Source: Escherichia coli (GTDB lineage: Bacteria; Pseudomonadota; Gammaproteobacteria; Enterobacterales; Enterobacteriaceae). Taken from it: 64,000 nucleotides of DNA. The notes under the pieces were generated by a model. It was not told the origin of the DNA. It saw only the letters and a program-made list of their open reading frames with translations, and made no database searches. A program made the translations under genes and the position numbers. The stretch lies in NCBI RefSeq assembly GCF_013315695.1, contig NZ_CP054353.1; one strand, given 5' to 3'. The first letter of the stretch is position 1. Every line of letters starts with the position of its first letter. Below are positions 55,228 through 58,141 of this stretch, piece after piece.

Positions 55228-55981
55228 CACATCCCCGTCAATACGGTTCTTGCTGCACGCTTACGCTGATTCAGTTGTTTATAACGCTGCATTTCACGCA
55301 ATGTGTCAGTTGTCCCCACAACAGTTCCTTTAACCATCCGCAAAGGCCAGCTGTTTACTGAGCATAATACGAACAGCAGCAGTGCCAGCCAGTTACGGTG
55401 ACCGCTGTGGTGTGTTCGCCAGAAAATCACCATGAATACCAGAATCGCGGCACTGACCAGAAAATGATAAACAGGAATCATCCCGGTAAACTCCGCTGCC
55501 TCATCAGTTGTGGTCTGCAACAACGCGACAATAAAGCTGTTGTTGATTTTACCGTACGTCATACCGGCAGGCGCATACAGTGCACAACAGAACAGAAATA
55601 ACAGCGCTGTAATGGATGTGAGGGTATTTCTGTGTGCAAGGAGCAGAAGGAGAAACAGAAGCAGCACATTTCCTGTTGCATTCTTCTCAGTGTATCCGCA
55701 TGCAATTGTGGTTATTGCAGAAACAACAAAAAAGAATAAAAACAATAAAATCCGGGGTGTGTTGCCCGGACAAAACAGTTTTCTGATATTCATCGGAGTA
55801 TATCGACAACATTATTATGAAGAGAACAGGATAATAAAAATCAGAAATTATCTGTAAAACAAATAACAGACAACTCTGCAGTAATAGACTGCAGGGTATT
55901 TCTGTTTAATTGCAGAAGATATTCAATTATCTTAATTACAGAATATACGCAATTATCGTTCAGGAGCAGTGTCGTCAGAAG

Positions 55982-56239
55982 TTATAAGTCATACCAAGCA
56001 TGATGGGTTGGTGACCATAAAGAACCAGCTAAAGCTGTACTCCTGTACTCAGTATATACACGACGACTTAATTTCGTTTTCTCTATTTCATGCTCCACTC
56101 TTTTTACCGTTTCACTAACATCAGAAACATTTTCAATCACAAAACTCTTACGTTCATAAATAAGCCTGCTTAATGTATTTATATCTAAAAATTTCGCATC
56201 AAAAGAATCAATCTGTACTGTTTTTTCTTGTACTGACAT
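55982..56239 (-). CDS. Small hypothetical protein (85 aa)
   Basis: AT-rich ORF with plausible RBS (AGGAAAAGAAG before the ATG); no recognisable family. Confidence 0.3.
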   Translation of the reverse strand: MSVQEKTVQIDSFDAKFLDINTLSRLIYERKSFVIENVSDVSETVKRVEHEIEKTKLSRRVYTEYRSTALAGSLWSPTHHAWYDL

Positions 56240-57547
56240 CTTCTTTTCCTGGCTGGTATGGCAAGTGACGGAGACAAGAGAAACGTTTTAAGCTCAGTTA
56301 TCTCCGCCATCACTTTCCACGAATGACAAGTAATTTTGCCTATTTTAAAACCATGCAAAAGGCAGGGTAAAAGGAGAAAATTCGATCGAATCGATCGACA
56401 AAATCGATCATACATGATGAAGATTTTTTATCGAATCCATAAAAATAGTGACAGCTAACCGGCGTTGCAGGAACAGTCAGAAATGGGCGTTTGGGAAAGA
56501 GCCATAGCACTACGTCGTCGCTGACATAGAGGAACTGTGCTTTGTTGATAAGATCCTTTATACGGCAACCAATCCATTGGACAAAAGATGAACTACGTAA
56601 TCACCGGGTTCTCACTGACGAAATACAGAAGTTAATGACACAACTGTGCCATGTACCTTGTACAACAGCGGTGGAAAGCTCTCAGAACAATGGAATTGCA
56701 GAAAGGTGTTAAAACGATGAAAGCCTTCATACCCAAATCGAATGTAAGAACGGCAGTAAAGACTGAATTGCGTAACCTTGCAGTAGCTCGAGTATTACAC
56801 TGCATAGTGTGCAGGGTTATCTCCCATTGAGAAAATATCGGCGCCAGCGAATAACGTCACCTTAGATGTAGCAGTTGCCAAATAGTGACTCAAGGGCGGG
56901 CTTACCGCATACACTGACACTTAGCGGATCGACAGAATATTATTAGCAGATCATCACTGAACGCTACGTAATTATCGTAATAAAGGCTTTTTCTGGCTAC
57001 CAGGAAGACCTGACATGGCTCTGCTCTGGAACCAGGCCGCAGGAAGCATCAATCTGGAGTTTATCAGCTACTGGAATTCCGGTGTATTGGCAGCCCCTGA
57101 TAATCACCTGACCCACGAAGAGCGCTCTGCTTTGCAGAAACTCTGGGGCGGTTTGGAGACAGGAGATGCCATTTAACGATTATAGGACGTTCTGATAAAG
57201 CCCATGATTTTACCTCCGCCTTAATTAACTGTTTTCTTTCTGAAGAAAAAATTGTCTGGTGGCAATCAGGTGGCATTTTCCCGGATCCCTGGCCCGCTAA
57301 TATATCCCGGCTGAACAGACGATTAACGCGATATTGCAAATATGGCATCTGAATCGATCATGATTTGGCGGCATCCATCTCCGTTCACAGTTTGGCATGC
57401 TTCCGATCATTGATTGGCATCCAGCCAGTCACTCCGGGAATTAACTCTTTTCACCGCAGTCTCCATTGCCGTGTTTAAACCAATGGAGACGTCAATGTCC
57501 AAAAAGAGAATATCCAGGAGCACTATGGATACCTGTTTTAAGATCCT

Positions 57548-57850
57548 TCAGCTCAAGTTCGACCAGAAGCTGGCTAACCGTTGTATCGGACTTGCAAAAC
57601 ACCAATGGGGATTGATCTCTATTTTGCGACACAGACGCATTATCAATACATCGATGGTGCGATCAAATACCTCAGTGGTCTCACCGTGGATCAAATCCAG
57701 CAATTGCTCACAGATTAAGACTCGTCGGGAGTTTTGAGCCAACGCCAGCAGTAACCCATATTCACCTTGAGTGAAATCTACAGGCTGTTGATGAGCATCA
57801 ACCAGCACGTAACGGTCCGGGATCAAGTGTCCAGCCGTTAAAAAAACCAC
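57548..57850 (-). pseudogene. Winged-helix (OmpR/ToxR-type) DNA-binding domain, apparently stand-alone or truncated
   Basis: 100 aa ORF (GTG start) with ...DFTQGEYGLLLALAQNSRRVLICEQLLDLIHG...RTIDVLIMRLCRKIE, resembling the trans_reg_C winged helix; surrounded by ORF-poor sequence. Confidence 0.4.
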
Positions 57851-58141
57851 TCTACTACCCTGCTCGACCTAAGCCTCGGCGTTCAGCCGCCTGAACGGGT
57901 ATGGCAAGGGTGAAAAGAAACAGCATCCCCACAGTACCGACCAGACGACAGGATGATGCTGGAACAGAAAGCATTCGCACCTCCCTTAGAATTAGACAGT
58001 GCGTACAGGATACGTAAGACAGGGTGACGGGGCGGCGATAAACTCTATTTACAAAGCTGAAAATTTTCTGACGATGAAAAACTATTCAACAAGGTTATCT
58101 GAGGCGTTAAAATAACCAGCTCGATTAACGACTAACTTGAG

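Follow-up and report, generated by a model that had tools for sequence, protein, structure and literature searches.

Positions 55800-58140 of the 64,000-nucleotide (nt) stretch of Escherichia coli DNA analyzed here (assembly GCF_013315695.1, contig NZ_CP054353.1; hereafter the window) hold almost no open reading frame (ORF) of any length, and the question that this locus raises is what such a 2.3-kb interval once was and whether any of it still works. The original prediction read it as a decayed regulator or sensor locus, or possibly a non-coding RNA, in which a winged helix was the only recognizable piece. We conclude that the interval is very probably ordinary pathogenicity-island debris, made of at least seven unrelated gene and insertion sequence (IS) remnants that were joined by old deletions and are non-functional.

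Composition of the ORF-poor interval

The ORF poverty itself was borne out. Each of the six frames of 55800-58140 carries 28-49 stops, and the longest stop-free stretch is 107 amino acids (aa), a length reached by 32% of the shuffled sequences (n = 1000, 100 +/- 19 aa). Among all 2341-nt tiles of the window this one is the poorest, the median tile having a longest stop-free stretch of 353 aa. The G+C content is 0.33-0.50 in the region, compared to 0.55-0.64 in the neighbouring IS66 element. To assign the pieces we aligned the region with annotated, intact relatives (blastn, tblastn), and families were assigned by Pfam and NCBIfam. The pieces traced to annotated genes or IS are presented in Table 1. 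Besides the winged helix, recognizable pieces include the C-terminal part of a CobW protein and remnants of IS3, IS21, RAQPRD and hek. The locus is thus decayed, as had been said; it is not a decayed regulator or sensor locus, because the regulator fragment is only one in a series of at least seven unrelated remnants that meet at deletion and insertion junctions.

Table 1. Remnants, junctions and flanking elements of the ORF-poor interval, in window coordinates.
Feature	Position	Strand	Remarks
ISEc22 (IS66 family: tnpA, tnpB, transposase)	52811-55264		8-bp target duplication
Hek/Hra/Tia-family outer-membrane adhesin gene tail	55975-56005	-	last 31 nt with stop codon; rest deleted
85-aa fusion ORF	55982-56239	-	codons 1-78 of a 122-aa protein plus 7 out-of-frame adhesin 3'-end codons (HHAWYDL)
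1062-bp deletion junction	56005-56006		at most 1 nt microhomology
hek/hra/tia-type adhesin promoter module, gene lost	56294-56449	-	156 bp, 76-96% identical in many E. coli islands
Three GATC (Dam) sites, 56384, 56393 and 56406: TCGATCGAATCGATCGACAAAATCGATC	56384-56409		immediately 5' of the predicted -35, with 13- and 9-bp spacing
Decayed IS3-family transposase (orfB/integrase core)	56450-56892	+	many stops, boundaries approximate
80 nt that precede a TonB-dependent receptor gene in other strains	56893-56972	+	ends at the 3938-bp deletion junction
CobW/COG0523 GTPase C-terminal third, residues 281-399	56973-57319	+	frameshift near 57140
IS21-family left end (ISSso4-like), 268 nt	57335-57602	+	istA codons 1-26 only (57525-57602)
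OmpR/PhoB-family response regulator fragment, ~residues 135-215 of 235	57605-57842	-	most of the winged helix, internal frameshift
Start (~34 codons) of a 'RAQPRD family' gene of an integrative and conjugative element (ICE), with upstream region	57881-58067	-	82% nt identity to L009 4001-4196
FxLYD-domain secreted protein gene, intact	58148-58489	+	NCBIfam FxLYD_dom, E = 4e-18, above curated cut-off

Two deletions could be placed by comparison with intact loci. In strain FEA3 (locus L008), window 56893-56972 corresponds to positions 978-1057 and window 56968-57369 to 4996-5410, and the missing segment (1058-4995) holds a TonB receptor gene, a DUF4198 gene and CobW codons 1-280. The five nt GTAAT form a microhomology at this junction (56968-56972). 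Of 5426 complete E. coli genomes, the set to which all junction counts refer, 399 share the junction. What is left of CobW lies in two different frames: against the intact 399-aa FEA3 protein, tblastn aligned residues 281-336 at 56973-57140 with 95% identity and residues 340-399 at 57137-57316 with 87% identity. This piece matched NCBIfam ZigA at positions 286-376 of 390 (E = 7e-10). When a CobW N-terminal GTPase domain (P-loop, CxCC metal motif) was sought in one frame with the C-terminal domain, only residues 281-399 were found. The small ORF starting MALLWNQAAG, reported earlier as 54 aa, does exist and is part of this CobW tail; its true size is 53 aa and its position 57015-57176, one base away from that given before.

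The second deletion was seen by comparison with strain CFSAN061771 (locus L002), which window 55265-56005 and 56006-58599 match at 98.8% and 99.3%, respectively. The first of these segments corresponds to L002 5566-6306, and CFSAN061771 holds 1062 extra base pairs (bp; L002 6307-7368) with an outer membrane protein (OMP) gene (coding sequence 6276-7016, 246 aa) and the 3' third of a gene for a small 122-aa protein. We placed this OMP in the Hek/Hra/Tia family because RefSeq gives the name 'invasion outer membrane protein Tia' to a paralogue with 64% identity. In the window, a beta-barrel OMP gene of ~245-250 aa is absent downstream of the conserved promoter, where the tail listed in Table 1 is all that is left of it, and the promoter module is intact. 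This hek deletion junction occurs in 22 of the genomes. An IS-mediated or site-specific origin was considered for both junctions and rejected; both deletions were taken to be illegitimate because direct repeats of only 0-1 nt (56005/56006) and 5 nt (56968-56972) are found there.

The other pieces were identified in the same way. The IS3 remnant shows 67-83% nt identity (blastn) to features annotated as 'integrase core domain' or 'DDE-type integrase/transposase', and its conceptual translation matched NCBIfam IS2 TnpB at positions 191-258 of 301 (E = 1.3e-4). The IS21 end is 91% identical in nt to locus L010 2501-2753; istA residues 1-26 were placed by tblastn, with many further istA matches. 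No complete istA and istB between two terminal inverted repeats are present, the rest of the IS21 element being deleted. As for the rightmost piece, L009 4001-4196 is the 5' end of an annotated RAQPRD gene with the DNA upstream of it. This remnant explains a 41-aa ORF at 57855-57980, and its 42-aa translation gave no protein-family match.

Taken together, these results suggest that successive IS insertions (IS3-type, IS21-type) and illegitimate deletions have left unrelated fragments end to end: from left to right, a fusion of the adhesin tail with a small-ORF head, the adhesin promoter, the IS3 remnant, the CobW tail, the IS21 left end, the middle of a regulator and the head of the RAQPRD gene. 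None of these fragments can yield a complete protein domain, and their function was presumably lost. The junction between IS21 and the regulator occurs in 145 of the genomes, and the order of frequencies (399 > 145 > 22) suggests scars of different ages, in which the CobW deletion and the IS21/regulator junction would be old and the hek deletion recent and lineage-specific. The ISEc22 insertion described below would also be recent and lineage-specific.

Several observations weigh against debris as a full account of the interval. Parts of the region are common to hundreds of genomes at 99% identity or more, which fits recent common descent and could also reflect constraint. Two segments, 57843-57880 (~38 nt) and 56450-56540, have no confident assignment, and the 85-aa ORF retains a Shine-Dalgarno sequence and the conserved promoter and is called by the Prokaryotic Genome Annotation Pipeline (PGAP) as protein WP_000116006.1, so that a residual product is possible. 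Debris is supported, on the other hand, by RefSeq/PGAP, which in identical genomes independently calls the CobW and winged-helix pieces frameshifted, truncated pseudogenes, the latter without either terminus. Overall, the feature is an already-annotated kind of island scar tissue, the usual product of IS and deletions, and the finding of debris matters little in itself, two of the pieces being RefSeq pseudogenes already.

The response-regulator fragment

The 100-aa ORF with a winged helix announced at 57548-57850 is present on the minus strand, and it gave a Pfam Trans_reg_C (PF00486) match (E = 7.7e-12), with ORF residues 22-81 aligned to model positions 2-61 of 77. The true homology (57605-57842) is narrower than the ORF, whose first ~15 residues are out of the ancestral frame, because the conserved FNGWTLD motif lies in another frame at 57842-57822. 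By tblastn the fragment shows 52% protein identity to residues ~135-215 of the 235-aa protein ECs_5067 (Z5684) of E. coli O157:H7 (E = 4e-27); this alignment starts nominally at residue 103, is weak there, passes through a stop and is convincing from ~135 onwards. The best NCBIfam matches were VirG (1.6e-12), PhoB (9e-11), TorR and OmpR, at positions ~145-211 of response regulators of ~220-240 aa. The fragment is cut right after ...RKIEINPH, where relatives go on with the wing QPxLIKTxRGxGYVF. With the wing lost and a frameshift after FNGWTLD, the Trans_reg_C domain is incomplete. No receiver sequence was found in any frame of 57843-58147, where the DNA is the RAQPRD remnant, and no close intact copy of the regulator was found in the complete E. 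coli genomes.

The piece had been labelled OmpR/ToxR-type. Both the alignment positions and the receiver sequence in relatives assign it to the OmpR/PhoB-type two-domain response regulators, and not to ToxR/CadC. Metagenomic and Enterobacteriaceae relatives with 65-76% identity carry receiver-domain sequence N-terminally and end ~25 aa past the helix; their neighbourhood in other enterobacteria is the chromosomal fdhF/gltP/acs region. A ToxR/CadC architecture was excluded because the relatives start in receiver sequence and a Response_reg ORF lies just upstream of them. The corresponding layout (N-terminal winged helix, transmembrane segment, periplasmic sensor) is not present in the window, where the IS21 end follows the fragment. 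In view of its sequence, we regard the piece as a pseudogene fragment descended from the OmpR/PhoB family and not as a working member of it.

A natural stand-alone winged-helix family was also considered, all 68 database matches to the fragment being at most 165 aa long. This candidate was rejected: the relatives of 130-165 aa begin inside the receiver domain (MLTGLGSESDVVVGLEMGADDYIGKPF...), with a separate Response_reg ORF directly upstream, and are best taken as split or partial calls of two-domain regulators. In loci L012-L015 (~5700-6500), four contigs of other enterobacteria of which two belong to NCBI genome assemblies, the Z5684-like regulator is represented by two overlapping ORFs (Response_reg, then Trans_reg_C). 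These split calls could be due to an assembly frameshift or to recurrent pseudogenisation.

The orphan adhesin promoter and alternative readings

The adhesin promoter module is the only piece of the interval with an intact, maintained look. In the many E. coli islands where it recurs, the next element downstream is always a hek/hra/tia-type OMP gene or, where the leader has this insertion, the 122-aa ORF. In the direction of transcription the module reads ...TCGATAA-(~18 nt)-GATCGATTTTGTCGATCGAT-TCGATCGAATTTTCTCC-TTTACC-(18 nt)-TAAAAT-(~45 nt)-GGAG-ATG, and a promoter scan predicted a sigma-70 promoter (TTTACC-18-TAAAAT) at 56371 to 56342. In hek-type loci a ~586-bp segment with the 122-aa ORF (L002 7017-7602; window 56240-56293) lies inside the adhesin 5' leader, flanked by a 12-bp direct repeat, GGAGATAAYTGA; this segment is absent from loci L005, L016 and L019. 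In one hra-like group (L017 2776-3249, L160 709-1182), an H-NS-family gene lies divergent, just upstream of the module.

Next to the predicted -35 stands the block of three GATC sites. As a statistical anomaly, GATC clustering alone was rejected, since the window holds three clusters (3 sites in 30 bp) where 1.3 are expected (P ~0.13), which makes such a cluster unremarkable as such. The other two triplets, at 27235-27261 and 37913-37933, are both in coding sequence (gshB and the 3' end of ansB). The cluster frequency not being significant, only cross-locus conservation carries weight. Across 8 loci, in which OMPs of different groups share only 57-70% identity, none of the three GATC sites varies, and they are as well conserved as the predicted -35 and -10. 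The block was seen in loci L003, L005, L016-L019, L159, L160, L162 and L163, in which the adhesins go down to 51% protein identity. Scans of public genomes and metagenomes for the exact motif are biased, the motif being their search key, and they are informative on context. A metagenome scan with the 20-nt core yielded 80 loci with 81 motif occurrences, 67 of them with the promoter directly after the block. Among these 67 promoter-linked copies, three GATC sites are found in 55, four in 8 and two in 4, and the copies differ by a 9-bp unit gained or lost; four-site copies occur in loci L044, L017, L003 and L160, two-site copies in L093, L039 and L094.

We also used a motif-blind sample of 8 OMP homologues picked by percent identity alone. 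Four of them carry the cluster, with the 13/9(/9) spacing and at -95 to -126 relative to the ATG. They include a homologue from Salmonella enterica (51% identity) with unalignable flanks, in which the three GATC sites and their spacing persist. The four without the cluster comprise two E. coli-like homologues (75% and 53%) that stand after a bamE/ompA-like gene and two others, which include a Providencia contig. In Yokenella regensburgei (L031 4646-4860), the same module with an identical three-GATC block precedes an unrelated 154-aa secreted protein with a signal peptide, and the promoter module seems to be a portable regulatory cassette. The block was then compared with the OxyR/Dam site of agn43 in strain K-12. 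The two are identical at 22 of 27 ungapped positions, with a score of 29 (16.9 +/- 2.4 for shuffled sequences, 1 of 500 reaching it), and the block is the best of all window tiles against that site. Of the 20 positions that the OxyR consensus specifies, the block matches 13 and the proven agn43 site 14; 13 is reached at only 26 of 127,928 window positions.

These observations raise the possibility, which we consider doubtful, that the block is a Dam-dependent epigenetic switch bound by OxyR or an Lrp-like factor, and that expression of the Hek/Hra1/Tia/Hes adhesin-invasins is phase-variable under a portable cassette. In this reading the block would be a protein-binding site. Such a switch would be complementary to the debris and not exclusive of it: the remnants would hold a working cis-regulatory element of the OxyR-like (agn43/gtr/opvAB) or Lrp-like (pap) kind, which, if real, was orphaned in the window by the hek deletion and here would drive only the 85-aa fusion. 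The invariant, fixed spacing across the adhesin groups and into Salmonella in the motif-blind sample, the likeness to the agn43 site and to the OxyR consensus, the reuse of promoter and block in Yokenella and the variation from 2 to 4 units all argue for it. Hek and Hra1 are moreover autoaggregation factors, like Ag43 (PMC8286834), which we counted on the same side.

On the other side, the sequences compared are related and their conservation is partly inheritance, and half of the sampled homologues are without the block. The TCGATCGA palindromes may serve another regulator, with GATC incidental, or H-NS nucleation; the TCGATAA boxes of the module resemble the H-NS nucleation motif, TCGATAAATT. 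A literature search that did not extend to the primary Hek/Hra1 papers returned no paper tying hek/hra/tia to Dam, OxyR or phase variation, the single apparent match being about HEK-293 cells. If the switch were real, the widespread adhesins Hek, Hra1, Tia and Hes of extraintestinal pathogenic, enterotoxigenic, enteroaggregative and Shiga toxin-producing E. coli would be added to Ag43 and P pili among the surface factors with epigenetic phase variation.

It is improbable that the 85-aa fusion or another small ORF makes a functional small protein. The 85-aa ORF is present where it had been predicted, with AGGA 7-8 nt ahead of its ATG as a ribosome-binding site, and the conserved promoter and the PGAP annotation as a coding sequence speak for a product. 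Its first part is residues 1-78 of the 122-aa protein, placed by tblastn at 56239-56006 with 96% identity. However, the fusion results from a deletion present in so few genomes (22), it is without the only hydrophobic segment of its parent, and that parent has no Pfam or NCBIfam family match. The 85-aa ORF is, in our reading, a deletion artefact. The other ORFs (107, 94 and 76 aa) have lengths within chance and no family match; in Pfam and NCBIfam no family was found for those at 56185-56415 (minus strand), 56542-56712, 56651-56830, 57064-57348 (minus strand) and 57414-57737.

A non-coding RNA, the other suggestion of the original prediction, is more unlikely still. The region is ORF-poor, it has 10 promoter-like sites where 5.6 +/- 2.6 are expected, and it contains some terminator-like matches; yet an Rfam scan of 54500-59500 in E-value mode gave no family inside the region at E <= 1 except rli40, whose 21.4 bits compare with a gathering score of 100, and each segment is accounted for as what is left of a coding gene or an IS, with 67-96% identity to intact copies. 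Hardly credible at all is a single decayed ToxR/CadC-like regulator or sensor locus: the Trans_reg_C winged-helix fragment is there, but it makes up 238 of 2341 nt, matches the C-terminal domain of two-domain response regulators whose relatives carry the receiver on the N-terminal side, and is surrounded by unrelated genes (IS21, RAQPRD, CobW).

Island setting and comparison with known systems

The debris lies ~7-9.5 kb inside an island. Core genes (glpX ... speC, yqgA) run up to tRNA-Phe (pheV) at 48632-48707 and are followed by a P4-type integrase and the island, with a PapG gene at the right end of the locus; the gene order of the locus is the same in intact relatives. The 2.5 kb around the feature are 100% identical in several complete E. 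coli chromosomes, for instance that of the blood-culture isolate AF3. The island belongs to the 'Hek + P pilus' type of pheV pathogenicity islands that extraintestinal E. coli carries. On the left, ISEc22 divides a phosphoethanolamine transferase gene into 51829-52809 and 55233-55793. With hek deleted and the transferase gene split, the whole hek/phosphoethanolamine-transferase module is therefore presumably dead in this lineage. The loss of the Hek adhesin/invasin and of the adjacent transferase is useful for virulence genotyping: flank-targeted polymerase chain reaction or read mapping would mislead.

Between the adhesin stop and the transferase start, a 26-nt tandem direct repeat, TTAATTGCAGAAGATATTCAATTATC (copy 2 85% identical), occupies 55906-55957, and a terminator-like hairpin stands just ahead of it at 55873-55897. 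On the right, the FxLYD gene is the first real gene after the debris and is annotated in all matching genomes. Outside the region, Rfam gave a strong, full-length isrC match at 59330-59452 on the minus strand (97 bits); this match and the 5' end of an IS3-family orfA pseudogene overlap. In K-12, isrC is also the name of something different, the flu/agn43 leader.

Four known systems can be compared with the pieces of this locus. The COG0523/CobW metallochaperone GTPases (ZigA and YeiR type, found in a TonB-receptor/DUF4198/GTPase cluster) share with the window a C-terminal domain that is 87-95% identical to that of FEA3; in contrast to the cluster, here the deletion has taken the GTPase domain together with both partner genes, and a frameshift interrupts the remainder. 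ECs_5067 (Z5684) and its Enterobacter and Citrobacter relatives have in common with the regulator fragment the winged-helix core TQGEYGLLLALAQN...EVFDRTIDVLIMRL. Unlike them, the fragment keeps ~80 of 235 residues, without receiver or wing, and stands between the IS21 end and the ICE gene fragment and not in a fdhF/gltP/acs or yjcS neighbourhood.

At the scale of the island, pheV islands with 'Hek, P pilus' are listed for strains S88 and APEC O1 in a review (PMC7545054). PAI-S88-pheV and PAI-APECO1-pheV, compared here by this published listing, share with the window tRNA-Phe next to yqgA, a P4-type integrase, the module of phosphoethanolamine transferase and hek-type OMP, PapG and many IS; they differ from it in that here hek is deleted and the transferase gene is split by ISEc22.

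The agn43 (flu) site of K-12 and the GATC block both have three clustered GATC sites, one pair of which is 13 bp apart, and an ATCnATTTTrTCGATCG core. The agn43 sites follow the transcription start, which the isrC/flu annotation puts at GATC-I, whereas the block is upstream of the predicted -35, a more activator-like position. The target gene is gone in the window. In their intact forms, both the agn43 site and the hek-type block precede the gene of a self-aggregating surface protein.

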